64,000 nucleotides of DNA from a bacterium BMS3Abin01 (lineage in GTDB: Bacteria > Actinomycetota > Thermoleophilia > BMS3ABIN01). Position numbers and translations under genes: made by a program. The notes below the pieces were generated by a model. That model made no database searches. It was given only the letters and a program-made list of their open reading frames with translations, and was not told the DNA's origin. The stretch is taken from contig BDUA01000039.1 of the NCBI GenBank assembly GCA_002897715.1, forward strand, positions 244 through 64,243, written 5' to 3'. Shown in pieces: positions 42,010 through 62,700 of this stretch (its first letter is position 1; each line of letters begins with the position of its first letter).

Positions 42010-42085
<76 letters not shown>

Positions 42086-42100
42086 GATACCTGCCTGTCC

Positions 42101-43420: not shown

Positions 43421-43455
43421 GATAAACCGGTTTCGTCGGGACCACCGGAGCGGTC

Positions 43456-44025
43456 TCAGTATTTCCGGATCACCGCCTTCACTACCGCCGCCGCCCTGAG
43501 CTCCTTCTCCGGGTAGATCGGCTTGTACCTGCGATTGGCGGCCTCCAGATACACCTTGCCGCCCCGCTGGCGAAAATACTTCATGGTCCACTCGCCGTCC
43601 ACCTCGGCGATGATGATGTCACCGTCCTTCTCCCGCACGCCCCGCTCCACCAGGACCATGTCCCCCGGCATGATGCCGGCATCGATCATGGAATCTCCCT
43701 GCACCTTGAGCATGAAGGTGGCCCCCGGTCGTTCCACCAGGAACTCGTCCAGGGTCATGGTGTCCAGCAGCTCCTCCTCCGCCGGTGAAGGCCAGCCGGC
43801 GCTCACCGCTCCCAGCAGGGTGACACTGTGGAAGCGCCTGCCCGGCAACAGCCGGCCGGTCTCGTCCCGCTCCACCAGCCCCAGCTCCACCAGGCGGTTC
43901 ACCAGCTTGTGAGTACTGCCCTTGGAACTGAGCCCCGCCGCCCTGGCTATCTCGCTATGGCTGGGCATGCGCCGGTGGGCACGGTAGAAATCCCTTATCT
44001 TGTCGAAATGTCTGGGCGTCTCCAT
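43456..44025 (-). CDS. lexA: LexA transcriptional repressor (SOS regulator)
   Basis: wHTH N-terminus 'MPSHSEIARAAGLSSKGSTHKLVNRLVELGL'. S24 peptidase 'VQGDSMIDAGIMPGDMVLVER' Ser/Lys dyad region. Start set at 'METPRHFDKIRDF' (ATG 44023-44025) rather than the track TTG at 44064. Confidence 0.85.
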   Translation of the reverse strand: METPRHFDKIRDFYRAHRRMPSHSEIARAAGLSSKGSTHKLVNRLVELGLVERDETGRLLPGRRFHSVTLLGAVSAGWPSPAEEELLDTMTLDEFLVERPGATFMLKVQGDSMIDAGIMPGDMVLVERGVREKDGDIIIAEVDGEWTMKYFRQRGGKVYLEAANRRYKPIYPEKELRAAAVVKAVIRKY

Positions 44026-44066
44026 GACAGGAACAGTATAGGCGTACGTTCGTACGCCTGTCAAGA
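44026..44066 (-). promoter_or_regulatory. lexA promoter with SOS-box-like 8-2-8 palindrome in the spacer
   Basis: Minus strand reads TTGACA-GGCGTACGAACGTACGCC-TATACT, with the ATG 9 nt downstream. Perfect inverted repeat GGCGTACG-AA-CGTACGCC between a consensus -35 and a near-consensus -10. Confidence 0.65.
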
Positions 44067-44106: not shown

Positions 44107-45681
44107 TCAACCGCCGGGGTATGGAGCCGGGATCAGGTATGTCTCACCGCTGCCGGCCATGGCGGTGGCGAAGAGCGTGGAGCGGAACGAATCTACTCCC
44201 TGGGGAATCCTGTATTTGAGGGTGAAGGAGCTTCCCTGGCTGCCGGGGTCAACGATCCCCGTCGCCAGCGGCAGTGGCGTCGTCATAGCCGCGCCACCGC
44301 TCTCTATGGAGCCGACGATAGTGAGCTCCTGGATGAAAACTTCCTGGCTGGTGATCCTGTAATCAACCGACAACTCCCCCGACTGGTAATCCGCATAGGA
44401 TGACCAGTATATATTTGTTGCGGCGATACCAAAGTTATTGTCTATCACTACTCCGATCTCCGCAGTACCGGCATTGCCGGCGGCATCGTATGCAACCGCC
44501 CTCAGGACGTGGGGGCCGCTGGCAAAACCCCCGGTCGCCAGGTCAAAGTCATAAGGCGCGGCGGTTCTGACGCCCGCCAGGTTATCGCCGACATAGAGCT
44601 CCACCCTGGAGACCGCATCATTGTCCGAGGCGGCTGTGACAACGGTCACCGTATCCGACAGGCTGGCTCCCGGGAGCGGCGAGTCGATGGAAACGGTCGG
44701 CGCGGTGACATCCGGAGCCTTGGCGGCGTTACGGAAGGCCTCGAGGCTCCCCGGAGAGCTATTGACTCGCCAGTCAGTTTCCTTGTTGGTATCGAACCAG
44801 ACCAGGCTCTCGATCCTGGGGAACCTGACCGGAAGGCTGGCAAACGTGTCGGTTATCCAGCCGGGTTTGCTGCCACCCAGCTCGGCTGACGCGGTCTCGC
44901 ACACCATGACCGGTTTGCCGCTACGCGCGGTGAACTCATCGTAGCTGGGTCCGAAGATGGCAGCGAAATCCCGCCATACAGAGGTCCATTCCGGCGTGTT
45001 TTGCGTCGTGCCCCAGTTGTATCCGTCCAGGCCCAGATAATCGATATAGGCATCACCGGGATAATATGTGCTGAAGGTACCGGCGGCGCCCGCAGCGTCG
45101 CTATTGGCATTCGGTGACCAGACGAACTCCACGTTCGCGGCGCCCTCCTGGACGAAGATGTCGTGAATATGACGCCAGGCCGGGATGAAGTCCGAAGGCT
45201 GGTTGCCGTTGGCCGTGCCCGACCAGACGGTCCAGTCACCATTCATCTCGGGCATCGGCCGGAAACGGACCGGATAGCCGAAGTCTCTCAGTTGACGCGC
45301 CCAACGGTGGATGTCGCCGTCGAAGTTGCCGCTGGTTATATTCCGCAGCTGATAGTCGGGCTGGTTGATCAGGTCGGCGGCGCCGGGGTCCCATGGCTCC
45401 CAGGTCACCATTATGATCTTTCCCTGCTGGGAGATAGAACGTAAAGCGCCCGCGTTGAAGTCGTCACCAATAGCGTAGAAAGAATGAAAGATGTCGACGG
45501 CGCGACCGGTATCGTTCTCGAAGCTCCCCAGGTCTCCCGGATTCTCAAGGAATACCCCCAGCTTGAAGCCCGGAGCGGTAGCAGCATCAGCGCTGTCGTT
45601 ACTTACCATTAACACGCCCGCGAGAAGCAGCGGCAGAAAAGCGATTGTGATTAAAGATCGGAGCGAACTCATTGAAGTCAA
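44107..45681 (-). CDS. Secreted glycoside hydrolase family 26 (beta-mannanase-like) with C-terminal Ig-like domains
   Basis: Signal peptide. 'VRFRPMPEMNGDW' (GH26 acid/base region) and 'VMVCETAS' (nucleophile region). C-terminal beta-rich repeats. Confidence 0.7.
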   Translation of the reverse strand: MTSMSSLRSLITIAFLPLLLAGVLMVSNDSADAATAPGFKLGVFLENPGDLGSFENDTGRAVDIFHSFYAIGDDFNAGALRSISQQGKIIMVTWEPWDPGAADLINQPDYQLRNITSGNFDGDIHRWARQLRDFGYPVRFRPMPEMNGDWTVWSGTANGNQPSDFIPAWRHIHDIFVQEGAANVEFVWSPNANSDAAGAAGTFSTYYPGDAYIDYLGLDGYNWGTTQNTPEWTSVWRDFAAIFGPSYDEFTARSGKPVMVCETASAELGGSKPGWITDTFASLPVRFPRIESLVWFDTNKETDWRVNSSPGSLEAFRNAAKAPDVTAPTVSIDSPLPGASLSDTVTVVTAASDNDAVSRVELYVGDNLAGVRTAAPYDFDLATGGFASGPHVLRAVAYDAAGNAGTAEIGVVIDNNFGIAATNIYWSSYADYQSGELSVDYRITSQEVFIQELTIVGSIESGGAAMTTPLPLATGIVDPGSQGSSFTLKYRIPQGVDSFRSTLFATAMAGSGETYLIPAPYPGG

Positions 45682-46135: not shown

Positions 46136-47266
46136 ATGTCTGATTGCCCCAGCAACAACAGAGATATTGCAGGCATGAATATCGTGGTTTTAGTGCCTGC
46201 CCATAACGAGGAAGAATCAGTCGAGGCCACCGTCTCGTCTTTATTGTCGCAAAGCCGGTTACCGGACCTGGTCGTCGTGATTTGCGATAACTGCACGGAC
46301 GATACGGAAGACGTGGCCAGCATCTTCACCTATCATCCGAATTTCCGTTTACTCCGAACCGTCGACAACACCCACCGGAAATCGGGCGCGCTCAACCTGG
46401 CCTACTCGAAATTCTGCGACGATGCCGATCTCATCATCACGGTCGATGCCGACACCATCCTCTCACCGACAGCAATCGAGAACTGGGAGCGGGAGTTTGA
46501 AGCCGATCCTGATCTGGGCGGTTCCGTGGCCAGATTCACCATACGCGGCACAGACATCCTCAGCAGGCTGCAGCGAAACGAGTATGCTCGCGGCATCGAC
46601 ATGGGATTGCGCCGGGGATGGACCTCCGTGCTGGGCGGCGCCGCCAGCGCCCTCAGAAAATCCGTTATGGATCGGGTGGCGGCGCTGCAGGACGGGCGTT
46701 CCGGCCCCTGGACCTACGCCTCGCTGGTGGAAGACTTCGAGCTGACTTACAAAATACACAGCTTCGGATGCCGCTGCTGCATCTCCCCCACCGTGCGTGC
46801 TTACACCGATTCGATGAAAACCATCCGGTCGCTGTGGGGCCAGCGCATGAAATGGCAGGTCGGCACCGTATCGGAGCTGTTCAAGGTAGGCATCAACAAG
46901 GTATCCCTGCTTCAATGGTACTCCCAGATCCAGGGAATGCTCGTCGTCGTTATCAGGATCCTTTGGTTGTATCTGATGGCTACCGCCATCGCTGCCGGAC
47001 ATCTCACTTTCAATCTGTGGTGGATCTGGATTCTCATACCGGTGATCATCACCGCCAATGAATTCAAGCACGCCCTTCGGATCCCCCATCGAGACCGGTG
47101 GGACCTGGTAATCGTTTTAACGGTCTTACCGGTCGAGCTCTTCTCGTGGCTACGCATGGGGTGGTTCGTTGCCGGCTGGTGGAAAGCCGTGATGGCCAAC
47201 ATCACCGGCCGTCAGAAAGACTGGTGGGCAATGCAATATCAAGCCGAGAGAGGGGGTGATAGATAA
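46136..47266 (+). CDS. GT2 glycosyltransferase with C-terminal TM helices, processive synthase-like (NodC/PgaC/cellulose-synthase-like)
   Basis: 'VLVPAHNEE', 'DNCTDDT' and 'TVDADT' (DxD). 'GQRMKWQ' resembles the Q(Q/R)xRW motif. Three to four C-terminal TM helices. Confidence 0.7.
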   Translation: MSDCPSNNRDIAGMNIVVLVPAHNEEESVEATVSSLLSQSRLPDLVVVICDNCTDDTEDVASIFTYHPNFRLLRTVDNTHRKSGALNLAYSKFCDDADLIITVDADTILSPTAIENWEREFEADPDLGGSVARFTIRGTDILSRLQRNEYARGIDMGLRRGWTSVLGGAASALRKSVMDRVAALQDGRSGPWTYASLVEDFELTYKIHSFGCRCCISPTVRAYTDSMKTIRSLWGQRMKWQVGTVSELFKVGINKVSLLQWYSQIQGMLVVVIRILWLYLMATAIAAGHLTFNLWWIWILIPVIITANEFKHALRIPHRDRWDLVIVLTVLPVELFSWLRMGWFVAGWWKAVMANITGRQKDWWAMQYQAERGGDR

Positions 47267-47593: not shown

Positions 47594-49342
47594 ATGGACA
47601 GGCAACAGGAAACAGCCACCGGCCGGAAGCTGATGCGCTTGTTGACAGATATGGTGACAGAGAGGGGCTCCGGGTTTAAATACCGTCTTTTCTTTTCGAT
47701 TGCGGTATCTGTTTTTCTGTTTTCCGCCCATACGGCCTTCGCGGCCCAGACCTATGTCTCGCTAACCTTCGATGACGGCCGGGCCAGCCAGGTCAACGCC
47801 GGACCCATACTGGAGGCTTATGGCGTCCAGGGCACCTTCTACATCATCTCCGGCGACCTGGGCAGCGACCCGTATTACATGTCGCTGGACCAGGCCTACG
47901 GTCTGGCGGCGGCGGGGAATGAAATAGGCGGGCACACCCGCACGCACCCCGACCTGACGCAACTCCCGGAGAGCGCGGCGGCTGAAGATATCTGCGGCGA
48001 CCAGCAGCAGTTGCAAAGCTGGGGCTTCCCCGCGGTGTCGTTTGCTTACCCCTTCGGCGCCACCAACCCGGCTGTGGAAGCGATCGTAAGCAGCTGCAAG
48101 GAGCGCGGCTACAGCGTGTCGGCGGATTATTCCAGCGCCCGCATCGTCGGCGGCCTGCAATGTCCCGGCTGCGATGTTGCCGAGAGCCTGCCGCCACAGG
48201 ATGCTTTTTCCATACGCACCGCCGGTGACGGCCCCAAAAACTCGACGACCCTGGATGACCTCAAATCCATGGTCATCCAGGCGGAGGCAACTGGTGGCTG
48301 GCTGGTGATCCCCTTCCATTCAGTATGCTCCGCACCCGGCACGGCGCCCGTACCCGGTGACGCCAGCGACTGCGGCGGCTTGTACTCCACCTCTTACGAC
48401 GACCTCGATCAGTTCGTCCAGTGGTTGAGCGGACGTTCCGGTTCGGGTACGACGATCAAGACGGTCGGTGAGGTCATGCAGATGTCGTTCCCACCACCGC
48501 CGCCGCCCGTCCCCGCCGGGCCGAACCTGGTGTTGAACCCTTCCCTGGAACTGGATGCGAACGTCGATGACATACCTGACGGATTCCTTCTCAGCGGCTA
48601 TGGCGCCAATATATATAGCTATTCCCGCGTTAATTCCGGCGCCCATTCCGGCACTTACGCCGAGCGGCTGACCATTGCCTCCCTGAGCAGCGGCGACCGT
48701 AAGCTGATTACGACCCAGGACCTGAGCAGCTGGAACATTTTCGCCGTTCCGGGCGAGAGTTATGAGACCTCGGTCTGGTACCGGTCCGACGTGCCCATCC
48801 TGCTCATCGCTTTTTACCATGATGCCGGTGGCTGGCACTACTGGAGTGAAAGCCCCCAGGCGGCCGCTTCCGGCTCCTGGACGGAACTGAACTGGCGTAC
48901 CCCGCCGATGCCAGCGGGCGCAGATTACTGGAGTTTCGGGCCGGCGCTCCTCCAGGCCGGGACCATGACCATTGACGACTTCAGCGCCGCCATGGCCAAT
49001 GACGGCGGCAACGCCTGTGAGAACGCCAGGCCCGCGCTGTCATTGAGCAATACCTCCGTTTACTGGGCCAGCTTCACCGACTACCAGTCCAATGAACTGA
49101 GCGTGGATTTCGACATGACCAACACCGGTTCCACGACATCCTACAACGTACAGGTGGAAGACCTGCCGGCGACCAACGGCGTCATCTGCGTCACTTCGCC
49201 GCCCCTGCTGCTGGGCCATATCCCGCCGGGCGGCTTACGGTCATTCACGGTCAGATACAGCATTCCGCCGGGCGCCAACAGCTTCCGGGCGTCGGTTTCC
49301 GCTTCGGCCGAGGATGGCTGCGCCGCCAGCTACCGCTATTGA
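47594..49342 (+). CDS. Secreted polysaccharide deacetylase (CE4, NodB homology domain) with C-terminal beta-rich domains
   Basis: Signal peptide. 'VSLTFDDGRASQ' (motif 1, Asp-Asp), 'GHTRTHPDL' (His motif), 'FAYPFGATN'. ~300-aa C-terminal extension. Confidence 0.8.
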   Translation: MDRQQETATGRKLMRLLTDMVTERGSGFKYRLFFSIAVSVFLFSAHTAFAAQTYVSLTFDDGRASQVNAGPILEAYGVQGTFYIISGDLGSDPYYMSLDQAYGLAAAGNEIGGHTRTHPDLTQLPESAAAEDICGDQQQLQSWGFPAVSFAYPFGATNPAVEAIVSSCKERGYSVSADYSSARIVGGLQCPGCDVAESLPPQDAFSIRTAGDGPKNSTTLDDLKSMVIQAEATGGWLVIPFHSVCSAPGTAPVPGDASDCGGLYSTSYDDLDQFVQWLSGRSGSGTTIKTVGEVMQMSFPPPPPPVPAGPNLVLNPSLELDANVDDIPDGFLLSGYGANIYSYSRVNSGAHSGTYAERLTIASLSSGDRKLITTQDLSSWNIFAVPGESYETSVWYRSDVPILLIAFYHDAGGWHYWSESPQAAASGSWTELNWRTPPMPAGADYWSFGPALLQAGTMTIDDFSAAMANDGGNACENARPALSLSNTSVYWASFTDYQSNELSVDFDMTNTGSTTSYNVQVEDLPATNGVICVTSPPLLLGHIPPGGLRSFTVRYSIPPGANSFRASVSASAEDGCAASYRY

Positions 49343-49377: not shown

Positions 49378-50949
49378 TCACCGGCCCGGATCCCCACCGG
49401 CTCTTTCCAGAGTGTAGATACCCCCGTCATCCAGCCAGACCGTCTGCTCGATATGGGCGGCTCGCCGCAGGTCGTCGACAGTAAATAAATAGTCGCCCTT
49501 TATCTTGTCGAACCAGACCAGGCATGCCTCGCCCTCTTCCGGCCATCTGCCCCTGAGCTGTGAAAGGTCGTTGAGCGCATCCGGGGAGTTGACGTTTGAT
49601 TTCAGCGGGGCCATCCTGGCGTGAAGACCGGCCAGGATGTAGGCGACATCCGGTCCGTTCGTGTAATAGGTACACCCGGACCCCGGACCCGGATGATCGA
49701 CAAGGTACTGAACAGTGTCGCTGCCTTTCCAGTATTTACCGTTATAACCCCATCCCCCTTCGCTGATATGTTTCTCCACCAGCGATAATGTCGCTGTCGC
49801 CGGATAGACCATGAAGATAATAATCACGGCTGCCAGGGAAAGATCGACCAGCCTCTGCGGAAAACGCCGGCCCAGTATAACCGAGGCCCGGCCCACCAGT
49901 AACAGCAGCAGCAGAAGTACGGGGACAGCAACCGGGGACAGCAACCGGTTGCCGATCTCATCGAAGCCGATAATCGATGAATATCCGGCCAGGAAACCGG
50001 TATAGCCGGCTACCAGCAGGAGAATCGGGCCTATATCCTGTAGCGTGGCTCTCATCTTCGACCTGTTGGCCCAAAGGGCTGCTCCGGCCAGGAAGCTGAC
50101 CGCCAGGCCTGCCAGCACCACCATGGCATCGTTCCCGGTGACCGTTTCCGGAACAAACCAGTGGAGAAGGGTTTTCAGGGTGAGCATCAGGTTCTGCGAT
50201 AACGAGTAGACCGATGAGGTCCGTGAGCCGAAGGTGACGCCGGCAACATGATAGTTCCTCATCGCCCAGATTCCCAGCGGCAGGATGGAGATAGGCAGAA
50301 ACAGGGCAAGGTGCCGGATCCTTGTCTTCATATCCTTGGGGCTGAACAGCAGGATGCTGACAACCCCTGCCGGAACGAGGACGGCGCCGATGTATCTTGT
50401 CATGCAGGCCAACGCCACCGACACCGACAGGAGCACTATGGAGCGGGTTTCACCTTCTTCCTGATATGACCGGAAGTTGATCAGATACAGGAGAATAAAA
50501 CAGATGAACAGAAGCTCCGACCATGCCATCAGGGAGACTTCGACCAGCGCTACCGAAACCAGCAAAAAGGCCGTGCCCAGGAACGCCAGGAACAGGGACG
50601 GCTTCAGGTATTCGAAGAGCAGCAACCCGGACATGTATATGACCAGCCCGAACAGGCAGGCGTTGATAATCGGGGCCGCTGTCAGTGGATCGATTCCCAG
50701 AAAGACATTGGTAACCGCCAACAGCAGGGGATAAAGCGGCGGCTGCACTACCAGCGGCAAACCATTATAACTCATCACCCCGGCGCCACTGGCGATATTC
50801 CTGGCGGTGCCTATGTACCCCACCGAATCCGGCGACAGCCCGGCGCCATACCAGTGCGTCGCCAGCATTATCAGGCTGAACCCCGCCAGCGCCAGCGCGC
50901 CCAGAAGCAGCTTCTTCTTCATTTTACTCATCACTGCATACTCTGTCAC
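49378..50949 (-). CDS. GT-C fold membrane glycosyltransferase (ArnT/PMT/GT39-like)
   Basis: 11-13 TM helices. N-terminal loop 'GLSPDSVGYIGTARNIASG' resembles the GT-C first-loop motif. C-terminal soluble domain. Confidence 0.6.
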   Translation of the reverse strand: MTEYAVMSKMKKKLLLGALALAGFSLIMLATHWYGAGLSPDSVGYIGTARNIASGAGVMSYNGLPLVVQPPLYPLLLAVTNVFLGIDPLTAAPIINACLFGLVIYMSGLLLFEYLKPSLFLAFLGTAFLLVSVALVEVSLMAWSELLFICFILLYLINFRSYQEEGETRSIVLLSVSVALACMTRYIGAVLVPAGVVSILLFSPKDMKTRIRHLALFLPISILPLGIWAMRNYHVAGVTFGSRTSSVYSLSQNLMLTLKTLLHWFVPETVTGNDAMVVLAGLAVSFLAGAALWANRSKMRATLQDIGPILLLVAGYTGFLAGYSSIIGFDEIGNRLLSPVAVPVLLLLLLLVGRASVILGRRFPQRLVDLSLAAVIIIFMVYPATATLSLVEKHISEGGWGYNGKYWKGSDTVQYLVDHPGPGSGCTYYTNGPDVAYILAGLHARMAPLKSNVNSPDALNDLSQLRGRWPEEGEACLVWFDKIKGDYLFTVDDLRRAAHIEQTVWLDDGGIYTLERAGGDPGR

Positions 50950-55669: not shown

Positions 55670-55760
55670 CACACTCGACAAAGGCAAACCCGTCGTGAGG
55701 CGGGGACGCAAAGCCAGGGGTCTCCGGTTGGGAGACAGCCCAGCCGCCGAAGCTTTTTGA
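55670..55760 (+). ncRNA. Candidate cyclic-di-GMP-I (GEMM) riboswitch in the leader of the surface-protein cluster
   Basis: 'AAAGGCAAACC', then the GNRA hairpin CGUC-GUGA-GGCG, then 'GGGACGCAAAGCC' + AGGGG. Then hairpin GUCUCC-GGUUG-GGAGAC and 'CAGCCCAGCCGCC'. Matches the Vc2-type GEMM core '...GGCAAACC...GAAA...GGGACGCAAAGCC...GG' by eye. Confidence 0.55.
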
Positions 55761-55938
55761 ACGAAGCTCGCTGGACTGGGCTTTTCAGTATTGAGGCCCT
55801 GGTGGAGTGATACGCAAGTTCAATTGCTTTGGCATCGCCAGGCGATTGAACTTTTTTATTGCCGGCACCAGTGGGACAGGGGATGAATCTTGGTAATTCT
55901 TGGTTGTTAAAGCGCGAGACAGAAAGGGGTGCACATAG

Positions 55939-56538
55939 GTGAAACGTTCAACGAAAATTGCTCTTCTGGCAGCAGGCACTACTCTAATCCTGGTCATGGC
56001 CCTTACTTCAGCGGTATACGGGGCCTCGTCGGCATCAGACCCCGTAGCGGTTACCCTGACGGTGGATGACTATATCTCCCTCAGCAACCCGGGCGATGTA
56101 GCACTGGCGAACATCGCCGGTACCGGCGGCTCGGCGGAAAACAGCGCCACCTGGACCGTAGCCACCAATAACGACGCCGGCTACAAGCTGGAGGTCTCCG
56201 CCTCCGGGACGCCGGCCATGACCAAGGGCGGCGACTCCTTCGCCGACCTGGTCGACGGCGGCACTCCCATTCCCTGGTCGGTGGCGTCAGCCGACTCCGC
56301 ATTTGGTTTCAGCGCCGAGGGCACGGCCACGTCCTCCTCGCTGTGGGGAACCCCCAGCACCGGCTCCGGCAAGTACCGCGGCTTCAGCGGCGGAACCGCC
56401 ATCGAGGTCGCCAACGACAGCAATGAGACCAGCGGTGAGGACACCACCATCTACTTCAAGGCCGAAGTAGGCGCCAGCCACCTGCAGGCCAGCGGTTCCT
56501 ACGCCGCCAACCTGACAGTCACAGCCACTACGCTGTAA
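55939..56538 (+). CDS. Secreted 199-aa beta-rich protein, possible divergent WxL-like cell-surface domain
   Basis: GTG start with AAAGGGGTG Shine-Dalgarno. Signal peptide. 'SATWTVATN', 'IPWSVAS', and C-terminal 'SYAANLTVTATTL' reminiscent of WxL motifs (YSATLTWTL). Confidence 0.4.
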   Translation: MKRSTKIALLAAGTTLILVMALTSAVYGASSASDPVAVTLTVDDYISLSNPGDVALANIAGTGGSAENSATWTVATNNDAGYKLEVSASGTPAMTKGGDSFADLVDGGTPIPWSVASADSAFGFSAEGTATSSSLWGTPSTGSGKYRGFSGGTAIEVANDSNETSGEDTTIYFKAEVGASHLQASGSYAANLTVTATTL

Positions 56539-56674
56539 TTGCATATATAACTTAATAGCAACAGATCAACGCAACATGTTTCAGACAGAAGCTCCCCTTC
56601 CGGGAGCTTCTGTCTTTGGCAAAGTCTGTCTTGCAGGAAAGCCGTTTGATAAAGCGAAGTCTACACCCCAGTAA

Positions 56675-58069
56675 GTGGCAATAAAAAAACAACACGTGAA
56701 TTCGCAGACAACAAACCCGGTTAACGCTGCTTGCTGCCACGAGAGGGCATCGGGCGCGGGAAGGTTATGGCGAGGCCTGTTCTCCGGAGCCATAGCCTTG
56801 ATTGTGTTGCTGTTTATTACCGTCACCATACCCGCCGGCGCCCGGGCCTACACCGTGGAAAAACACGACGACCAGGTGACCGGCCAGATTGTCATCTCCC
56901 CCACCAAGATCGAACTCAACCTGGATCCGGGCGATACGGCCACCGCCGAGGTGGTATTGGTGAACCGCACCGGCGAGCCCGTCACTTTCCAGTTCTCCGC
57001 TGAGGACTTCGAGGGCTCCCATGATGCCTCACAGGCTACGGTCTTTCTGGGCGATGAGTTGAGCCCCAGAGGCGCCAGCCGGTGGCTCCACCCTGAAGTC
57101 AGCAGTATCGTGCTCGACAACGGCGAGACGCTCACCATGGCTGTCGAGGTATCCGTACCTCCCGGCGCCGAGCCCGGAGGCCACTATGCCGCCCTGTTCG
57201 CCTCGCGGACCACTGATCAATATGATAACGGCACCGCCATCAAGGTAACCGAGCGGCTGGGTACATTGTTCCTGATCAAGGTTACCGGCGCCATAGACGA
57301 AGCGGGAACATTGGATACGCCGGAGGTCAAGGGCTTCCTGGAGTACGGGCCGGTTTACATCGGCCTGGTGTTCAACAACCAAGGCAACATCCATCTTAAG
57401 CCGTCGGGGAAGGTGACCGTCCGCAACCTGCTGGGTCAGACAGTCGCAGAGATCCCCGTGGAAGAATGGATAGTCCTGCCTGACTCGTCGCGCCGCACCC
57501 TTGTAAAATGGGACCGTCACTACCTGCTGGGGCGCTACACGGCCACAGCCGAGATCACCTACGGCGACAGCGGCACCATCCTCATGTCCCAGAGTTCCTT
57601 CTGGGTGATCCCCTGGAAGATAATCCTCACACTTGTTCTCGGCCTGCTGCTTCTGGGCTTCATTATCAACAAACTGTACTGGCGGTCGGCGAAGCGTGAA
57701 CAGCCCGGCGACGGCACCGCGGATGAGCCGCCCCGGGTTGGCGCCCCGGCGGCACAACCGGACGAGCAGGCCCAGCCGCCCCATCAGGAGACCATGCCCC
57801 TGGAGCCCGTGGTACCCGATAGCTATATCGCCCTCAACGAGCTGTTCCCTTCCATGGGCGATGACCAGGTCATCAATCTGGATGACGCCGAGACCCACAG
57901 GCTGGTGCGGGAGATGATCAACAACAAACTGGATCTGGCGCGATCCTACCAGAAGCAGGGCATGACCGAAGCGGCGCGCTACGAACTGTATGAGGCTCGG
58001 GCCGCAGCCCAACGTATCGGGCTGCTGTCGGAGATCGGCATCATCGATGATCTGCTGATCTGGCTCTAG
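56675..58069 (+). CDS. Membrane-anchored cell-surface protein (signal peptide, ~280-aa beta domain, C-proximal TM after conserved 'WVIPWK', Pro-rich cytoplasmic tail), DUF916/DUF3324-like architecture
   Basis: Architecture matches the paralogue at 61843..62700: 'ISPTKIELNLDPGDTATAEVVLVNRTGEPV' vs 'VSPTVISPTIAAGDETRETVVLHNLSGRAL'. Conserved Trp-rich segment before the TM. Confidence 0.45.
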   Translation: MAIKKQHVNSQTTNPVNAACCHERASGAGRLWRGLFSGAIALIVLLFITVTIPAGARAYTVEKHDDQVTGQIVISPTKIELNLDPGDTATAEVVLVNRTGEPVTFQFSAEDFEGSHDASQATVFLGDELSPRGASRWLHPEVSSIVLDNGETLTMAVEVSVPPGAEPGGHYAALFASRTTDQYDNGTAIKVTERLGTLFLIKVTGAIDEAGTLDTPEVKGFLEYGPVYIGLVFNNQGNIHLKPSGKVTVRNLLGQTVAEIPVEEWIVLPDSSRRTLVKWDRHYLLGRYTATAEITYGDSGTILMSQSSFWVIPWKIILTLVLGLLLLGFIINKLYWRSAKREQPGDGTADEPPRVGAPAAQPDEQAQPPHQETMPLEPVVPDSYIALNELFPSMGDDQVINLDDAETHRLVREMINNKLDLARSYQKQGMTEAARYELYEARAAAQRIGLLSEIGIIDDLLIWL

Positions 58070-58440
58070 GGCCGGCGGCGCTTCGCTGATTGACATCCTG
58101 TAGCTAAAATGATAGCGTCATTGTTGCCGGTTCAAGCGTTTTACGGAGGCAGTGGCGATCATCCCCGGGCGTTGGTATCTCTTTCCTATGGTAGCTGTGA
58201 CGATGTTGGCAGCTTCTGCGGTCCTGCTGTTTTTCACCGTGGCCCCACCTTCCCTGGCCGCGTCTCGCTCCCGGCCCGCCATGGAGGCGGGACATACCCG
58301 GGTGACCGTCCGGGTGACCAGTTCCCTGGCTGTATCCACTGATGGCAGTGCCGAAGCCTCGGGGCCGGTGATCCGTATCAGGGGCCCTCAACCCGCAACC
58401 GTCTCCTTCCTGGTGATGGACGGCTGAGCGTTCCGGTCTT

Positions 58441-61400
58441 TTATTCCGGATAGGCGGTATAGACCACGTTAGCGGTGTAACTGCCGGAGACAGACGGCGC
58501 CGGCACGACCAGACGGTAGTCGAACAGAAACGAGGCGCCGGCGGTCGCGGGCAGTCCGTCGGCTACGATCGTGCTCGCCGGGGTCTTCACAAACGGCTGA
58601 TAGGCCGATGGCGCCTGAGCGTTCTGCTTCCAGCCCAGGTTCACGATATCGATGAAATTGGCCGGATTGGACTGCAACAGATCCCCGTCAGACGCGACTT
58701 TCAGCCCCCAGGTGACATTGGACTTGACCGTGAGCCTGGCGGCATAAGCCGGAGACGAAGCATCCCCTACGTAATAGGTCGTACCCTCACTGACATTGCC
58801 GAAACCCACCGAGCTGGTACCCGGGGTGCCGTCACGGTTCCAGGTATCGTCGATGGTCACGGTTATGGAGCCCGGCGCCGGCACGTACTCGATCACCAGC
58901 TTGGGCCTGAGGGACGGATCGGCGCTGAAGTCGGATGAATAGAACAGTTTAACGTCAGACTCCGCCGGGTTCTCCACATCCTTCTTGATGATCATCCCCC
59001 TGTTGGTTACCGTGCCGTTCACCCATGACTGGGTCAACGCCGCAAGGTCCCAATCGACCCAGACCGCGGTCGCCGCCGGTGCCACGGCGCTGGCGCTGAC
59101 GGTGGCGTTGAAGTCCCCGCCGGGGCTGGCCCAGCTGCTGCTGCCGTCGTAGGTATTCCAGGTGGCCCCGTCACCGCTCTGGGTCCAGTAGCCGGTGCCC
59201 TCCGTCCAGTCGCGGGTAAGATAGTGCACGTCCATGGTCGGGGTGCTGGTATCCCCCTGACCCGCCTGGTAGAGCGACAGCGTTGCCGAGTTGATCGTCG
59301 ACCCGGTGGGTATGGCTGACAGGTCAAAACGAAGGTTGCAGCGTATGTTCCCCCAGAAGGAAGTGGGATAATCCCCCGCCAGCAGCCATGTCGTCGCGCC
59401 CGAGTTCAGGTCCGGCCGGTAGCTCTGCAGGGTATCGTCCACACCGTCGGCCGGCCCGGGCTGGATCACCATCTGGATGGCGGCCTGGAAGACATAGTCA
59501 CCGGAAACGGTCTCGTTGCCGGATGGGTCGATGGTTCTGACCCGGTAATGGTAGACGGTGCCCGCGGTCAGACCGGACAGGGACACCACGTGCTGGTTGC
59601 TGATGGCCGTGTCCAGAGTAGTGGTCGAACCATAACTGGTGGTGGTGCCGTATTCCACCTGGGATGTTCCCCCTTCGCAACTGGACCATTTTATGTCGGC
59701 TGTGGTGGTAGTGATGTTCTCAGCCCGGACCTCGCCCAGGTTGGGGGGCGTGACATCGTCGCCCAGCCATTCGATGGTCAGCTTGGGTCTTAACGTACGG
59801 TCCACCACGTATTCGGAGGAGTAGAATTCCTTGGCGTCACTGCCGGTGGGGCTCTCCGGATCCTGTTTGATGAGGACACCGAAATTGTCAACAGTGCCGT
59901 CTATCCAGTCCCGGGTGAGCGCAGCCAGATCCCAGTCCACCCAGACACCGGTGACCCCGGGCGCCACGGCGCTGGCGCCGGCGGTGGCGTTGAAATCCCC
60001 GCCGGGGCTGGTCCAGCTGTTGCTGCCGTCGTAGGTGTCCCAGGTGGCCCCGTCGCCGGTTACCGATCCGCTGCCGGTCCCTTCACTCCAGTCGCCGGTC
60101 AGATAGTGGGCATCCAGGTCAGGGGTACTGCTGTCCCCCTGACCCATCTGGTACAGTGACATGGTAGCGCTGTTGATGGTGGCGCCGGCCGGTATGAAAC
60201 CCAGGTCGAAATCCAGCAGGGACCGCATGGTCCCCCAGTCGGCGCCCGGCAGGTCGCCGACCTGGAGGCTGGTCTCGGCGCCCCGGTTCCATGCAGGCCG
60301 TGAGCTGCCGATATACGTGTCCCTGGCCATGGCGGGAAAGGGCTGCAGAACGGTGATGTTGGCGGTCCTGAAGCTGTTCTCCGCCGAGTAGGAGATGTTA
60401 CCGGCCCGGTCCGCCGAACGCACACGGTAATAATAGGTAGTCGATTCCTGCAAGCCGGAGATGGGTTGGCTGTGGCCGGTCAGCATGGTGCTGTCCAGCG
60501 GCGTCGACCAGGTATATACGCCGGAACTGGTGCCATATTCCACCTGGGAGTCGGCGGCCTCGTCCGTGGTCCAGGTGATGATGACGTTGCTGCTGGCTAT
60601 ATTGCCCGCCTGCACTGCGGAGATCACCGGAAAGGTATTGTCAACATTAACCTGGATGGAAGACACCGCCGTGTTGTAAGCACGGTCCGTCGCCGTCAGG
60701 CGCAGGGTATAGAGGCCGTCGCTGACGGCGGCCGTGTCCCAGGTGCCCAGCAGGCCCGCCAGCACCGGGCTGGCGCCGATGGTAATCTGCGTCCACGAGA
60801 CCGGCGCCGCACCGGCGCCGTACTCCAGCAGGTAGTTATAGAAGCTGTAAGCGTCGTCTACCGTGCCCCGTACCGGCAGCGAACCAGAGACCCAGTCGCC
60901 GTCTGACGGGTCGGAGATGATGGCGGTGGGCGCGGAGGCGTCTATCTGGAGCATGCGTGACTGCCTCTGGATATCGTCGCCGGTGGCAGACAGCAGCCGC
61001 GTTCTCAGCCAGTACCAGTCACCGTCGGTAAGACCACCGGCCGGCAGGGTAAGCTGGAAATCATACCAGTTGCCGTTCCGGGTCACGGCAGGCGCCGCCC
61101 ACGACTTCACGCTGCTGTTGGTAAATCTCCGCAGCCGCTGCTGGCCGCTGCCGGTTAATATCTGGTCGTAGTCCGCCCCCGTGCCCCAGGCGCGGATGTA
61201 TACGGTGGCGCCGGGGGCAAAGGTGTAGGATTCATCTGTTCGCGCCGCATCGCTGTAAATTCTGGCGTACTGGTTTAGGCCGTACAGCGATATCTGCTGC
61301 TCGAACTGAACACGGGGGCCGCTGCCGCCGTTTCTCACCCTTCCCCATATTTTCATATAGTCTGACTGGCCGGCGGGGATGGTCACCTGGGACGTATAGA

Positions 61401-61788
61401 TATATGGCGCGGTGAAAGTGACCTGGGTCCAGTTGGCAACCCGGATATTGGTGTTCTGGTAGCGGCGTAACCGCATCCTGTTTCTCTTGCCGGAAACAGC
61501 GCCGACGCGGTCGGTCGTCACCCGCACATAGACCGTATCGCCCGGGTTGAACTCGGTGGTGTGAACCATACAGGCGGCATCGGCGCAGATCTCGATAATA
61601 TCGCCGTTGGCTTCGGTGTAGGGAGCATCCGGCCCCAGGACCGCCTGGGAGCGGTAGGCCGTCAGGAAAAAAACGGCCGCAGCCGCGGCCAGCACCAGCA
61701 GGACGCCGGCAAACGCCCTCCCTGGCTCCACCTGGTTATGATAATCATGCCGGCGGTCTTGCGCACCGGTTTCGGGCCCGTCTGCCAA
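58441..61788 (-). CDS. Giant (1115 aa) secreted/anchored protein with fibronectin type III domains and two tandem ~215-aa repeats
   Basis: N-terminal signal anchor. FN3-like 'VEYGTSSGVYTW...YYYRVRSADRAGN' and 'VEYGTTTSYGSTT...YHYRVRTIDPSGN'. Two repeats about 70% identical, 'SLLDFDLGFIPAGATINSATMSLYQMGQGDSSTPDLDAHYLTGDWSEGTG...RPKLTIEW' and 'RFDLSAIPTGSTINSATLSLYQAGQGDTSTPTMDVHYLTRDWTEGTG...RPKLVIEY'. Confidence 0.7.
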   Translation of the reverse strand: MADGPETGAQDRRHDYHNQVEPGRAFAGVLLVLAAAAAVFFLTAYRSQAVLGPDAPYTEANGDIIEICADAACMVHTTEFNPGDTVYVRVTTDRVGAVSGKRNRMRLRRYQNTNIRVANWTQVTFTAPYIYTSQVTIPAGQSDYMKIWGRVRNGGSGPRVQFEQQISLYGLNQYARIYSDAARTDESYTFAPGATVYIRAWGTGADYDQILTGSGQQRLRRFTNSSVKSWAAPAVTRNGNWYDFQLTLPAGGLTDGDWYWLRTRLLSATGDDIQRQSRMLQIDASAPTAIISDPSDGDWVSGSLPVRGTVDDAYSFYNYLLEYGAGAAPVSWTQITIGASPVLAGLLGTWDTAAVSDGLYTLRLTATDRAYNTAVSSIQVNVDNTFPVISAVQAGNIASSNVIITWTTDEAADSQVEYGTSSGVYTWSTPLDSTMLTGHSQPISGLQESTTYYYRVRSADRAGNISYSAENSFRTANITVLQPFPAMARDTYIGSSRPAWNRGAETSLQVGDLPGADWGTMRSLLDFDLGFIPAGATINSATMSLYQMGQGDSSTPDLDAHYLTGDWSEGTGSGSVTGDGATWDTYDGSNSWTSPGGDFNATAGASAVAPGVTGVWVDWDLAALTRDWIDGTVDNFGVLIKQDPESPTGSDAKEFYSSEYVVDRTLRPKLTIEWLGDDVTPPNLGEVRAENITTTTADIKWSSCEGGTSQVEYGTTTSYGSTTTLDTAISNQHVVSLSGLTAGTVYHYRVRTIDPSGNETVSGDYVFQAAIQMVIQPGPADGVDDTLQSYRPDLNSGATTWLLAGDYPTSFWGNIRCNLRFDLSAIPTGSTINSATLSLYQAGQGDTSTPTMDVHYLTRDWTEGTGYWTQSGDGATWNTYDGSSSWASPGGDFNATVSASAVAPAATAVWVDWDLAALTQSWVNGTVTNRGMIIKKDVENPAESDVKLFYSSDFSADPSLRPKLVIEYVPAPGSITVTIDDTWNRDGTPGTSSVGFGNVSEGTTYYVGDASSPAYAARLTVKSNVTWGLKVASDGDLLQSNPANFIDIVNLGWKQNAQAPSAYQPFVKTPASTIVADGLPATAGASFLFDYRLVVPAPSVSGSYTANVVYTAYPE

Positions 61789-61842
61789 ATCTTCTACCTC
61801 CCAGGGAATCCCCCACAGAACGAGTTACCGCAGGGGGATTTT

Positions 61843-62700
61843 CTACTGCCCTTTTCGCCAGTTTGGAGGTAAAACATTAGCCACACCGGCAGAGGCGAAC
61901 ATGCCCGCCGCCGCCGCCAGTGATACCGCCGCCAGCGCCAGGAGAAAACGCCAGGGGGCGATGATGAGCCACGCCTTGTGTTCAACGGGAGCACCCACAC
62001 CCGTATCGATGAAAAGGGTTACCCGGCCGAGGGAGAATGCCGGCGTATCGGCCCACACCAAACGCATGCTGGTGCTCTCGCCCACAGCCAGTTCCCCGCT
62101 GCCGGCGGACAGTTTCCTGTCCCGCGCCAGCAAGCCGGAATATTCCATGCCACCGGCCATCCTGGTGGGAAACCTGCCGTTGTTACGGCCGGCCACGGTG
62201 AACAGTATGGGGCTGCCGGCGTCGACCAGGTGAGGAGTGTGAAAAATGGTCTGATCCACCGGGACGATCACCTCGATCTCCAGGTTGACCCCCACCTGCC
62301 CGGCGATGGAGACGTCCTGCTCCCTGGCCGGGGCCGCCAGAAACAGGATGGTGCCATCCACCCTGCCCGCCACTGCCTCCCGGCCGGCGGCCACCCTCAC
62401 TGACACCGGGACGGATTCTCCAGCCGCTATGGTCATCTCGGCCGGCTCCACCCCGGCGGTGACGCCACCCCCTTCAACCCCGCTCAACTCCACCTTGGCC
62501 CGGATCCCGAGCGCCCTGCCCGACAGGTTGTGCAACACCACCGTTTCCCTGGTCTCATCGCCGGCGGCGATGGTGGGGCTGATGACCGTCGGGCTCACCT
62601 GCAGACCCACTTCTTCCCGGGCAAGCGACCCGCCGGTATTGAACAGGGTCAGGAAGACACCGATGCTGACCGCTGTTAGTGTAGCCAAGAACCTGGACAT
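61843..62700 (-). CDS. Membrane-anchored cell-surface protein, paralogue of 56675..58069 (DUF916/DUF3324-like architecture)
   Basis: Signal peptide, beta-rich domain, 'AWLIIAPWRF' + TM near the C-terminus. Confidence 0.45.
   Translation of the reverse strand: MSRFLATLTAVSIGVFLTLFNTGGSLAREEVGLQVSPTVISPTIAAGDETRETVVLHNLSGRALGIRAKVELSGVEGGGVTAGVEPAEMTIAAGESVPVSVRVAAGREAVAGRVDGTILFLAAPAREQDVSIAGQVGVNLEIEVIVPVDQTIFHTPHLVDAGSPILFTVAGRNNGRFPTRMAGGMEYSGLLARDRKLSAGSGELAVGESTSMRLVWADTPAFSLGRVTLFIDTGVGAPVEHKAWLIIAPWRFLLALAAVSLAAAAGMFASAGVANVLPPNWRKGQ

Follow-up and report, generated by a model that had tools for sequence, protein, structure and literature searches.

A putative, deeply divergent WxL/WxLIP-type surface display cluster with a c-di-GMP-I-GGC riboswitch in an uncultured marine actinobacterium

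RESULTS

Genes of the locus and their conserved order

The window analyzed here, a stretch of 64,000 nucleotides of DNA with a GC content of 0.606, comes from "bacterium BMS3Abin01," an uncultured marine actinobacterium related to Thermoleophilia/Gaiellales MAGs. It contains a four-gene cluster at positions 55939 to 62700, the GC content of which was 0.621 and not the ~65% given in a first-pass annotation. Genes A (55939-56538; 199 amino acids [aa]) and B (56675-58069; 464 aa) are located on the plus strand, and genes C (58441-61788; 1115 aa) and D (61843-62700; 285 aa) on the minus strand, with D directly upstream of C. The coordinates and orientations in that annotation were thereby confirmed. 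It had missed a fifth, conserved ORF, which we named E (58152-58427, plus strand; ~91 aa) and which encodes a signal-peptide-like N terminus and a ~45-aa beta-rich tail ending with ...VSFLVMDG. Using tblastn, ORF E was detected at the same position in locus L010 (43% identity over 91 aa; E = 2e-13) and in loci L014, L016, and L059. The public records inspected show no gene call for it, and its product bears no resemblance to the CscD/LPXTG proteins of Firmicutes.

Orthologues with the same gene order were found on 8 to 10 independent MAG contigs, showing that A to D are not chance ORFs. The C and D orthologues were at the same position in loci L010, L013, L016, and L059. In those loci of marine actinobacterial MAGs that have enough upstream sequence, the A-type gene was directly 5' of the B-type gene. 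The gene order was kept across two phyla: in the closer Patescibacteria loci, the B-type gene had an A-type gene directly upstream in 36 cases and directly downstream in 34, the usual order being A-B-A'. [quoted passage not shown] We conclude that the A-B partnership and the gene order are conserved. The A/B variant is common in ultrasmall Patescibacteria and occurs also in some Actinomycetota.

A riboswitch and a terminator precede gene A

The c-di-GMP-I-GGC riboswitch variant was reportedly defined in a paper by Weinberg from 2017; no report on its ligand was found in the accessible literature. Its covariance model (RF03167) identified an aptamer at positions 55674-55752 on the plus strand, with full model coverage (73.9 bits versus a gathering score of 59; E = 6.7e-18). 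The aptamer lies in the 5' UTR of gene A and ends 186 nt upstream of the start codon. It is followed by an intrinsic terminator at 55816-55861 (plus strand), the expression platform of the riboswitch, in which RNA folding and a terminator scan revealed a ~17-bp hairpin and then U6. Of 10 related actinobacterial loci, 9 likewise had an RF03167 match ahead of their A orthologue, and 8 of 9 orthologous loci had a hairpin with U5-9 at 50 to 80 nt past the aptamer, the stem sequences differing between loci. The riboswitch and the terminator ahead of gene A are real, in line with the riboswitch control first suspected for this region. The riboswitch does not precede the D-C pair, which is encoded on the opposite strand.

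A second hairpin, with a perfect 14-bp stem, is located between genes A and B (56583-56615, plus strand). At this position, all 8 orthologous loci compared had a GC-rich hairpin of 12 to 17 bp, again with differing stem sequences. Possibly, it acts as an attenuator or as a 3' stabilizer and thus sets the A:B ratio. A precedent for cyclic-dinucleotide control of a WxL gene exists in L. plantarum (PMC13522541). In the window, a second c-di-GMP riboswitch was found ~10 kb away, before a gene for a GH26 hydrolase beside genes for a GT2 glycosyltransferase and a polysaccharide deacetylase, where it fronts a neighboring exopolysaccharide-type locus.

Proteins B and D are WxLIP homologues according to profile comparison

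In protein B, a signal peptide is followed by two Ig-like domains, one PGBD-like and one HBD-like, a PWK motif with a transmembrane (TM) helix (~307-341), a Pro-rich linker, and a C-terminal cytoplasmic helical domain of ~85 aa (cytoplasmic tail, ~120 aa in all), which has no counterpart in known WxLIPs. Hydrophobic segments were found at residues 30-61 and 307-336, and the corresponding helices of the model span residues 30-51 and 314-341. The start codon is uncertain (GTG at 56675 or TTG at 56798); public calls use the TTG, resulting in 423 aa. In protein D, a signal peptide precedes two beta domains, and a PWR motif leads into the C-terminal TM helix; hydrophobic segments were found at residues 1-22 and 243-277. 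Thus, the signal peptide, beta domain, W motif, and C-proximal TM segment noticed at first in two proteins of the cluster were seen in B and D, with PWK or PWR just ahead of the TM helix.

The Pfam models named in the first-pass annotation, PF13731 (WxL), PF06030 (DUF916), and PF11797 (DUF3324), gave no threshold match to any of the proteins A to D. In particular, neither B nor D matched PF06030 at E ≤ 1, and neither matched PF11797. The link to known families is visible only through intermediate homologues, profiles, and structure. Indeed, PF06030 matched 40 of 87 members of the B family (best E = 3.3e-11), and an HMM search with the B-family profile matched the solved EfmWxLIP1 of E. faecium (9i25_C; E = 3.7e-5). 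When the B family was compared with 12 annotated Firmicute WxLIPs using hhalign, probabilities of 99.5 to 99.8% were obtained (E = 2.7e-22) over 260 to 319 columns, covering both Ig-like domains. Protein D matched the B family with 96.3%, and the profile of its orthologues matched the B family with 99.4 to 99.8% and the Firmicute WxLIPs with 90 to 93% (E = 4e-7).

The AF2 model of B (pLDDT, 87.9) was used for a Foldseek search. The top matches were the WxLIP entries 9i1y and 9i25_C (E = 1e-12), and next came the chaperones CfaA, CsuC, Caf1M, and PapD, with E values of 1e-9 to 1e-7 for the chaperone-usher chaperones. A PapD-like fold had been raised as an alternative to the WxLIP assignment; the resemblance to PapD-type chaperones exists, but it is no rival, because WxLIP itself is PapD-like in fold. 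On the basis of profile comparison, the sequence match to a solved protein, and structure, we conclude that B is a homologue of WxLIP (DUF916-DUF3324-TM). As judged from the profiles, D is a divergent WxLIP paralogue. These results upheld the early view of a Csc/WxL-like cluster with a DUF916/DUF3324-like layout. One B homologue is named "P pilus assembly chaperone PapD" in IMG, and some are named "COG1470 family protein" at NCBI.

The first domain of the B model contains a long beta-hairpin (residues 168-205; positions 57176-57289, plus strand) with strands at residues 168-184 and 187-203. It holds the most conserved motif of the family, RxGTLFLxxVxG, and L198, L200, and G205 are invariant or nearly so. 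For WxLIP, AlphaFold2 predicts a hairpin that is inserted into WxL and pairs in parallel with a WxL strand (PMC10599100). Because of this prediction, and of the G1 strand of PapD-type chaperones, the hairpin of B is by analogy a candidate donor strand.

Protein C probably ends with a divergent WxL domain

Protein C starts with a TM or signal anchor and a repeated module, continues with an Ig-like domain and two units of FN3-like plus DNRLRE modules, and has a WxL-like C terminus. It matched the DNRLRE model NF033679 in two stretches (170.8 bits versus a cutoff of 34); further matches were to PurAcPhosph_N, FN3, and Disaggr_repeat. The first description as a protein with FN3 and repeats was correct with respect to the FN3-like modules and a tandem duplication of 289 aa (residues 387-675 and 682-969; 53.6% identity; E = 1e-90), but it missed the WxL-like C terminus (residues ~966-1115; positions 58444-58893, minus strand).

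Using hhalign, a profile of the C-terminal 150 residues from eight orthologues was compared with 22 annotated WxL domains. The match reached 88.7% in local mode (E = 2.6e-6) and 85.6% in global mode (E = 6e-7), and reversed controls gave 0.1%. PF13731 was not matched by the C termini of C and seven orthologues at E ≤ 10. The two Trp-x-Leu motifs are absent as a pair: motif 1 (...NVTW-G-LKVAS) has W-G-L, while motif 2 (...SGSYTANVVYTAYPE) has V-Y-T-A and no Trp. PF13731-positive Paenibacillus WxL proteins also show Y or A at motif 2 (...FTYTATSGI). The profile data suggest that C probably ends with a divergent domain homologous to WxL, which would therefore make C the large WxL component.

Protein A belongs to a separate domain family

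Protein A contains a signal peptide and a single C-terminal domain of ~180 residues, which we refer to as the A-type domain, and nothing else. It carries W72-T-V and W113-S-V, and its C-terminal end is ...YAANLTVTATTL. All 62 close homologues are named hypothetical, and none of them had any Pfam match. A search with the A-type profile yielded 1,146 representative proteins (clusters at 50% identity; a lower bound). The proteins that carry it are 119 to 1909 aa long and include both small, domain-only proteins and large multidomain proteins. The domain end coincided with the last residue in 160 of 180 proteins and was one residue short of it in 19 more. Thus, the A-type domain is WxL-like in its behavior, being strictly C-terminal in both small and large proteins. 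In the large proteins, the HMM matches mostly began at profile positions 20 to 30.

With a narrow profile, A matched small WxL domains with 64 to 70% at best (hhalign; reversed controls, 0.1 to 0.5%), while a broader profile gave 3 to 40%, and the result thus depends on the alignment. For calibration, true WxL subgroups recognized one another at 94 to 99%. PF13731 was not matched by A or its 62 homologues (E ≤ 1) or by 118 distant family members (E ≤ 0.01), and the two Trp-x-Leu motifs are absent, the aligned positions being W113-S-V and T-V194-T. Of the initial view of A as WxL-like, the secretion and the Trp-x-V motifs stand, but A belongs to a separate domain family without database annotation, and its relation to WxL is weak. 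Possibly, A is a very divergent small WxL-type domain.

The AF2 model of A (pLDDT, 90.9) had chaperone-usher pilins as its best PDB fold matches (E = 7e-4; TM score, 0.37 to 0.5; large rmsd). They made up most of the top 50 matches, which also included the fiber subunits TasA and CanA and among which there was no solved WxL chain. Since the model resembles chaperone-usher pilins, it suggests that A may dock by strand complementation. Residues 35-45 in the N-terminal segment show alternating hydrophobics and have no partner strand in the model.

DISCUSSION

A riboswitch-gated display module

We consider it reasonably likely that the locus encodes a cell-surface display module of the WxL/WxLIP (Csc-like) type that is deeply divergent and that has two anchor-client pairs and riboswitch gating. 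We infer that D pairs physically with C and B with A. D would hold the large C protein at the cell surface via the C-terminal WxL-like domain of C, and the FN3 and DNRLRE modules would point outward as the adhesive or glycan-binding part. Similarly, B, with its added cytoplasmic helical domain, would hold the small secreted A protein. Docking would occur by strand complementation, in which the hairpin in the first Ig domain of the anchor fills the open edge or groove of the client's beta-sandwich, as modeled on the Enterococcus WxLIP-WxL prediction and on PapD-type chaperones with pilins. The riboswitch would gate transcription of A via the intrinsic terminator, and B and E would be transcribed by read-through past the conserved hairpin. 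In this way, the module may be linked to the switch between a sessile and a motile lifestyle that cyclic dinucleotides govern, with a ligand and a sign of regulation that are presumptive. The second c-di-GMP riboswitch, at the neighboring exopolysaccharide-type locus, points the same way.

In the first-pass annotation, such a layout was considered unusual for a high-GC genome. This argument is weaker now, because the GC content is 62%, because PGAP already annotates DUF916 proteins in cultured high-GC actinobacteria (Clavibacter, Streptomyces, Nonomuraea, and Cellulosimicrobium), and because a gene next to the Clavibacter DUF916 gene is WxL-like.

Alternative explanations

Rather unlikely, in our estimation, is an usherless fiber or pilus that is formed by donor-strand exchange, with A as the polymerizing subunit and B as a membrane-tethered PapD-like chaperone or platform. 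Large proteins with A-type or WxL-type ends would then be tip adhesins, because they combine N-terminal binding domains with a C-terminal pilin-like domain, like FimH and PapG, and the A-B hairpin would set a high A:B ratio, as for papA. This would fit the conservation of the hairpin 3' of gene A, the pilin, TasA, and CanA matches of A, the chaperones that come after WxLIP among the matches of B, the PapD name of one homologue in IMG, and the unpartnered residues 35-45 of A. However, the fold matches of A are weak, the cluster has no usher or other polymerization factor, and no report of fibers was found in the papers on WxL clusters that were consulted. Furthermore, the N-terminal strand belongs to the A-type domain in the large proteins too, and it is therefore no extension specific to polymerizing subunits.

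A more general proposal, which we regard as similarly doubtful, is that WxL/WxLIP clusters and the A/B variant are the monoderm counterpart of chaperone-usher systems. By donor-strand complementation, a membrane-tethered PapD-like chaperone would hold, and possibly polymerize, pilin-like subunits, the large proteins would be tip adhesins, and, in the present lineage, a cyclic-dinucleotide riboswitch would turn the system on or off. If this were true, the A-type family, which comprises 1,146 or more clusters at 50% identity, would form a major unrecognized class of surface-fiber or adhesin subunits, including those of ultrasmall bacteria attached to host bacteria (episymbionts).

It is also unlikely that the main role of the cluster is to process or bind glycans as a surface complex, in which the DNRLRE/disaggregatase-like modules of C bind or remodel the cell's own exopolysaccharide or environmental polysaccharide, A, B, and D serve as scaffolds, and the whole is coregulated with the neighboring EPS locus. 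The two DNRLRE/Disaggr_repeat modules in C argue for such a role, but to our knowledge the function of DNRLRE is itself uncharacterized, and no catalytic domain was detected in A to D. The enzyme genes behind the second c-di-GMP riboswitch and the position of the Clavibacter DUF916 locus among GH43 and sugar-transporter genes are in line with it, as is the carbohydrate utilization proposed for the csc clusters of Lactobacillus plantarum by Siezen et al. in 2006 (PMC1534035). Since the glycan explanation is about the cargo and not about the assembly mechanism, it is compatible with the display module and does not exclude it.

Finally, that A to D are unrelated Ig-like/COG1470-type envelope proteins, neighbors by chance without a common functional module and WxL-like only through a convergent beta-sandwich, would agree with the failed direct Pfam searches, the COG1470 names, and the weak statistics for A versus WxL, but it is highly improbable and largely refuted by the gene order conserved across two phyla and by the profile results (≥99.5% for B versus Firmicute WxLIPs over both domains; 88.7% for the C terminus of C versus WxL, with clean reversed controls), and a solved WxLIP is the top structural match of B.

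Comparison with known systems

The WxL clusters are among the closest known systems. As in these, the anchor combines a signal peptide and two Ig-like domains with a TM helix toward the C terminus, and the clients are one small, domain-only protein and one large protein with N-terminal binding modules, the client domain being extremely C-terminal. The genes are adjacent, and in Patescibacteria the client-anchor-client order is identical. For B and D, homology to WxLIP was demonstrated; for the C terminus of C, homology to WxL is probable. In contrast to known WxL clusters, Pfam models miss every one of these window proteins, the small client A is from a separate unannotated family and lacks the canonical W-x-L pair, two anchors are encoded on opposite strands, and B has an added cytoplasmic domain. 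Moreover, an LPXTG (CscD-like) protein is missing and another small secreted ORF is found instead, the cluster belongs to a marine actinobacterial MAG and not to a gut or food Firmicute, and control is by a c-di-GMP-type riboswitch. Hassan et al. (2023) defined a WxL cluster as at least one WxLIP and at least two WxL proteins within four genes (PMC10599100). Within five genes, we found the WxLIP homologues B and D, the probable WxL protein C, and the possibly WxL-like A; the locus corresponds to this definition only if A counts as WxL.

Like the chaperones of chaperone-usher pili (PapD, CfaA, CsuC, Caf1M), B has a two-Ig fold with a long conserved hairpin, and like the pilins (CfaB, PapA, FimA), A is a pilin-like beta-sandwich, so that strand complementation is plausible. 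The large clients, in which binding domains at the N terminus are combined with a "pilin-like" domain at the C terminus, recall two-domain tip adhesins. Unlike chaperone-usher pili, the locus has no outer membrane or periplasm to serve and no usher (a domain search of A to D revealed no usher domain), and its "chaperone" is membrane-anchored, as is D. The likeness does not go beyond the fold (B, E = 1e-9; A, E = 7e-4), and polymerization is hypothetical here.

Among the surface adhesins and pilins under c-di-GMP riboswitch control are pilA1 and CD2831 in Clostridioides difficile and Cap in Bacillus thuringiensis. The locus shares with them a riboswitch of the cyclic-di-GMP class and a terminator directly upstream of a gene for a secreted surface protein. 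It differs in the riboswitch, which is of the GGC variant of class I, in the cargo, which is WxL/WxLIP-like instead of a sortase substrate or type IV pilin, and in the phylum. Taken together, the locus would represent a form of the WxL surface cluster of lactic acid bacteria that is very divergent and has gone unannotated in an uncultured marine actinobacterium.

Layout and conservation of the locus

Four substantial ORFs were confirmed in the region singled out by the first-pass annotation. Genes A (55939-56538, + strand, 199 aa) and B (56675-58069, + strand, 464 aa) are convergent toward C (58441-61788, - strand, 1115 aa) and D (61843-62700, - strand, 285 aa), and C is located directly downstream of D. 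GC content is 0.621 across the cluster and 0.606 across the window, below the value of about 0.65 given previously. Over the 90% of A that it covers, a database protein named for bacterium BMS3Abin01 is 100% identical to A. The contig was seen again in marine metagenomes, and the nearest relatives of A and B are in MAGs labelled Thermoleophilia, Gaiellales or Actinomycetes. The cluster lies between housekeeping genes: lgt, ccdA and resA-like genes at one end, uvrA/uvrB at the other. Several orthologous MAG contigs (L010, L013, L016 and L059) share the order lgt - riboswitch - A - B - <C - <D - <uvrA. We conclude that this is a stable chromosomal locus and no island.

Between B and C lies a small ORF, E (58152-58427, + strand, ~91 aa), for which the public records inspected contain no call. 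Its N-terminus is signal-peptide-like, and its beta-rich tail of ~45 aa ends in ...VSFLVMDG. By tblastn, the position of E is kept in L010 (43% identity, E 2e-13), L014, L016 and L059; no likeness to Firmicute CscD/LPXTG proteins was detected.

B and D are WxLIP homologues

Scanned directly against Pfam and NCBIfam, A to D showed no WxL (PF13731), DUF916 (PF06030) or DUF3324 (PF11797) match, and nothing relevant came up for B and D. Sub-threshold matches of B to NPCBM_assoc and FixG_C, and of D to choice-of-anchor D, were set aside as generic Ig-like or spurious. The link to WxLIP came instead from the homologues of B, profile comparison and structure. The distant homologues of B are mainly from Patescibacteria (30-36% identity), and some are named 'DUF916 domain-containing' and carry PF06030. 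This model, now WxLIP_PGBD, is matched by 40 of the 87 aligned B-family members. Furthermore, the B-family profile found the solved Enterococcus faecium protein EfmWxLIP1 (9i25_C, 9i1y) with an E value of 3.7e-5. When the B family was compared by hhalign with 12 Firmicute 'DUF916 and DUF3324' proteins (WxL and WxLIP reference sequences were taken from annotated Firmicute plasmid records), values of 99.5-99.8% were obtained (E 2.7e-22), and the alignment of 260-319 columns covered both Ig-like domains and extended into the TM region. Against the B family, the single D sequence scored 96.3% and a five-orthologue D profile 99.4-99.8%; this profile also reached 90-93% against the Firmicute WxLIPs. 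In both proteins, a signal peptide is present and a 'PWK/PWR' motif leads into a C-proximal TM helix.

Structure prediction for B by AF2 (pLDDT 87.9) agreed with this assignment. The best PDB matches of the model were 'WxLIP from Enterococcus faecium' (9i1y, 9i25_C; E 1e-12), followed by the PapD-type chaperones CfaA, CsuC, Caf1M, PapD and DraB (E 1e-9 to 1e-6). B and D are therefore WxLIP homologues, as the DUF916/DUF3324-like layout noticed earlier had suggested, and the structural comparison of B places the solved WxLIP ahead of the PapD-like chaperones.

Unlike the ~320-aa Patescibacteria and ~340-aa Firmicute WxLIP proteins, B continues beyond the membrane (residues ~340-464, ~57690-58069, + strand) with a Pro-rich linker and a cytoplasmic helical domain of ~85 aa, which was modelled with pLDDT >90. 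Pfam and PDB sequence searches with this tail gave no match. The domain may connect the surface module with some intracellular component.

C resembles a large WxL protein

From N- to C-terminus, C comprises a hydrophobic anchor, a repeated N-terminal module, an Ig-like region, a tandem duplication and a final domain of ~150 aa. Its description as an FN3 plus tandem-repeat protein holds: each duplicated unit consists of an FN3-like (PurAcPhosph_N) and a DNRLRE part (NF033679, 170.8 bits), and the two copies share 53.6% identity across 289 aa. PF13731 did not detect the final domain. Nevertheless, when the domain was profiled from 8 orthologues and compared with 22 annotated WxL domains, the match was 88.7% in local mode (E 2.6e-6) and 85.6% in global mode (E 6e-7), and reversed-sequence controls stayed at 0.1%. 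In the alignment, '...NVTW-G-LKVAS' falls on WxL motif 1 and '...SGSYTANVVYTAYPE' on the C-terminal motif. Based on this match, C appears to be the counterpart of a 'large WxL' protein, in which binding modules are followed by a C-terminal WxL domain.

A carries an unannotated C-terminal domain

All 62 close homologues of A are named 'hypothetical', and none of them has a Pfam match; a sub-threshold hit to Peptidase inhibitor I66 (19.8 bits at a cut-off of 27, in 11 of the 62) was considered generic or spurious. An exhaustive search with the A profile retrieved 1,146 representative proteins at E<=1e-3, including 571 at E<=1e-10. Among the best 150 of the 1,146, lengths range from 105 to 1909 aa, and larger A-type proteins carry N-terminal Laminin_G_3, DUF2341, beta-propeller or other modules. 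The end of the A-type domain was the last residue in 160 of 180 proteins and one residue short of it in 19. PF13731 was found in none of the 118 A-type proteins scanned, and database names in the family are uniformly 'hypothetical' or 'uncharacterized'. A-type domains thus constitute a large partner-domain family without annotation in the databases queried.

The top PDB matches of the A model (AF2, pLDDT 90.9) were the chaperone-usher pilins CfaB, CS20, CS17, PapE, PapA, FimA and CsuA/B, and the fibre subunits TasA and CanA were also among the matches, all of which were weak (best E 7e-4, TM 0.37-0.5). No solved WxL chain was present in the top 50, and a search of PDB sequences with the A profile found nothing. 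In profile comparisons, the outcome varied with the alignment used. A narrow actinobacterial profile of A reached 64-70% against small WxL domains (E 5e-6 to 7e-5; reversed controls 0.1-0.5%), placing W113-S-V on WxL motif 1 and ...LTV194 on motif 2, whereas a broad profile reached only 3-40%; bona fide WxL subgroups compared with each other gave 94-99%. Because of this spread, the earlier view of A as WxL-like stands only in part: A is possibly, but not demonstrably, a very remote WxL relative. Likewise, the C-terminus of C matched the A-type profile at only 4-10%, and the two client domains do not demonstrably belong to one shared family.

The arrangement of A and B genes is conserved in Patescibacteria

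A genome scan seeded with the single B protein yielded 80 loci. In the actinobacterial loci, A directly precedes B. Among the closer Patescibacteria loci, the usual order is A (~220 aa) - B (~320 aa) - A' (~255 aa), A' being a second A-type gene; an A-type gene was found directly upstream of B 36 times and directly downstream 34 times. This order is the same as that of the small WxL - WxLIP - large WxL genes in Firmicutes, exemplified by Listeria (L091) and E. mundtii (L097), and, if A-type proteins count as WxL, it would fit the published definition of a WxL cluster, in which one WxLIP is accompanied by two WxL proteins (PMC10599100). More distant Patescibacteria loci (L060-L089) contain tandem WxLIP-like B-B pairs, e.g., ~340 aa plus ~555 aa, next to which no A-type gene was detectable; the client may have diverged beyond detection, or these loci may be arranged differently. 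In the window, each anchor adjoins one client (A by B, C by D), suggesting that A-B and D-C are two cognate pairs.

WxL-type loci in other bacteria, including high-GC ones

WxL clusters have been described almost only from Lactobacillales and Bacillales (PMC10599100). The first-pass annotation considered such a cluster unusual in a high-GC genome. This argument is weaker than it seemed: in a tblastn search of plasmids, we found 'DUF916 domain-containing protein' annotated by PGAP in the high-GC Clavibacter, Streptomyces, Nonomuraea and Cellulosimicrobium, as well as in Deinococcus and Paenibacillus. In the Clavibacter phaseoli plasmid pCCh (L007, 5101-6915), a 208-aa 'hypothetical protein' is encoded directly upstream of the DUF916 gene; it is WxL-like by hhalign (85-92%), a relationship that Pfam misses. 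This pair is located among GH43 glycosidase and sugar ABC-transporter genes.

The Paenibacillus urinalis plasmid NZ_CP118105.1 (L008, 2894-10774) harbors a PF13731-positive cluster with the order DUF916 - WxL - 1048-aa RCC1-repeat protein, the last with a weak WxL match. The PF13731-positive WxL protein of the Paenibacillus locus ends in ...FTYTATSGI, which appears intermediate between the classic ...TWTLSDAP and ...LTVTATTL of A. A homologue search with it returned 19 close relatives only, and its profile missed even the solved E. faecium WxL chain among PDB sequences, indicating that WxL sequences are very divergent. The L008 cluster lies ~1.3 kb downstream of genes for a GGDEF-domain protein and an HD-domain phosphohydrolase, with two small unrelated genes between; this position hints at a tie between WxL-type clusters and c-di-GMP signalling.

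A conserved riboswitch precedes gene A

Riboswitch control of the cluster, proposed earlier, was supported by Rfam: a c-di-GMP-I-GGC aptamer (RF03167; 55674-55752, + strand) scored 73.9 bits at a gathering score of 59. It ends 186 nt upstream of the A start codon and is followed by a terminator hairpin of 17 bp plus U6 (~55816-55861, + strand). In 9 of 10 related loci, RF03167 also precedes the A orthologue, and a hairpin with U-tract follows the aptamer in 8 of 9 loci, with varying stem sequences. The element is therefore a conserved riboswitch, predicted to work via transcription termination. The locus offers a natural cargo with which the GGC variant of the c-di-GMP-I class, so far poorly characterised, can be studied.

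A second hairpin, with a perfect 14-bp stem (56583-56615, + strand), lies between A and B, ~45 nt past the A stop codon. A GC-rich hairpin of 12-17 bp follows A in all 8 orthologous loci; its stem sequences vary, and a conserved stretch (UGAUUGUAUA...AAUAGCAACACGUCAACGCAA) precedes it. The hairpin may act as an attenuator or mRNA stabiliser and could set a high A:B ratio.

Elsewhere in the window, a canonical c-di-GMP-I riboswitch (RF01051; 45690-45776, - strand; 83.1 bits) is located directly upstream of the gene for a secreted GH26 and Big_7 protein (44107-45681, - strand). This gene adjoins those for a GT2 glycosyltransferase (46136-47266) and a polysaccharide deacetylase (47594-49342); a PMT_2-like membrane protein is encoded nearby (49378-50949), and the group looks like an exopolysaccharide locus controlled by a cyclic dinucleotide. 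Judged by eye, a C-terminal domain of ~100 aa is common to the GH26 protein and the deacetylase. Evidently, the host places several surface or matrix functions under c-di-GMP-I-class riboswitches. A tRNA gene (42010-42082, + strand) is followed by ORFs whose translations, judged by eye, suggest a DinB-like Y-family polymerase (42101-43591, - strand) and a LexA-like repressor (43456-44064, - strand); this would be an SOS module (42010-44064) between the exopolysaccharide locus and the remaining window.

Proposed docking mechanism and comparison with known systems

In summary, reading the locus as a Csc/WxL-like cluster was right in substance but needs correction in detail. New in this WxL/WxLIP-type locus are the previously unrecognised client-domain family and the riboswitch control. 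The accessible WxL literature does not mention that WxL/WxLIP extends to Actinomycetota and Patescibacteria: we found no paper on actinobacterial or Patescibacteria WxL versions, or on DUF916 in Patescibacteria. WxL clusters have been discussed as animal-host interaction factors (PMC10599100). Here, the anchor and client module is present in free-living marine Actinomycetota, in a form that current domain models miss, and is very common in Patescibacteria; such a spread speaks for an ancient and general function in cell-surface organisation rather than for a specialisation to animal hosts.

In Enterococcus, the first WxLIP domain is predicted by AlphaFold2 to insert a long hairpin into WxL; pairing in parallel with a WxL strand, this hairpin would complete the WxL beta-sandwich (PMC10599100). 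PDB 9i25 is a deposited complex of WxLIP with long WxL. The first domain of modelled B has a long hairpin (residues 168-203), and its second strand holds the most conserved motif of the family, RxGTLFLxxVxG. Considering that the anchor fold is PapD-like, that A resembles pilins in fold and that the large clients are laid out like tip adhesins, we propose that strand complementation would allow B and D to hold A and C at the membrane or wall interface. A literature search found no paper linking WxL to a donor-strand mechanism.

A, with its pilin-like fold, might also polymerise as a fibre subunit, although we regard this as unlikely. One prediction of the fibre model, an N-terminal extension in small subunits only, was not borne out by the HMM matches in the large proteins and A', which begin mostly at positions 20-30. 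The N-terminal strand of A was accordingly rejected as a donor extension peculiar to small subunits, because the large proteins and A' have it too.

Docking by strand complementation is suggested at the fold level by the similarity of the anchor to PapD-type chaperones and of the client to pilins. A more far-reaching and less likely reading is that of a donor-strand system in monoderm cells, akin in principle to chaperone-usher pili. Strand-complementation docking would join Gram-positive surface display to Gram-negative pilus assembly.
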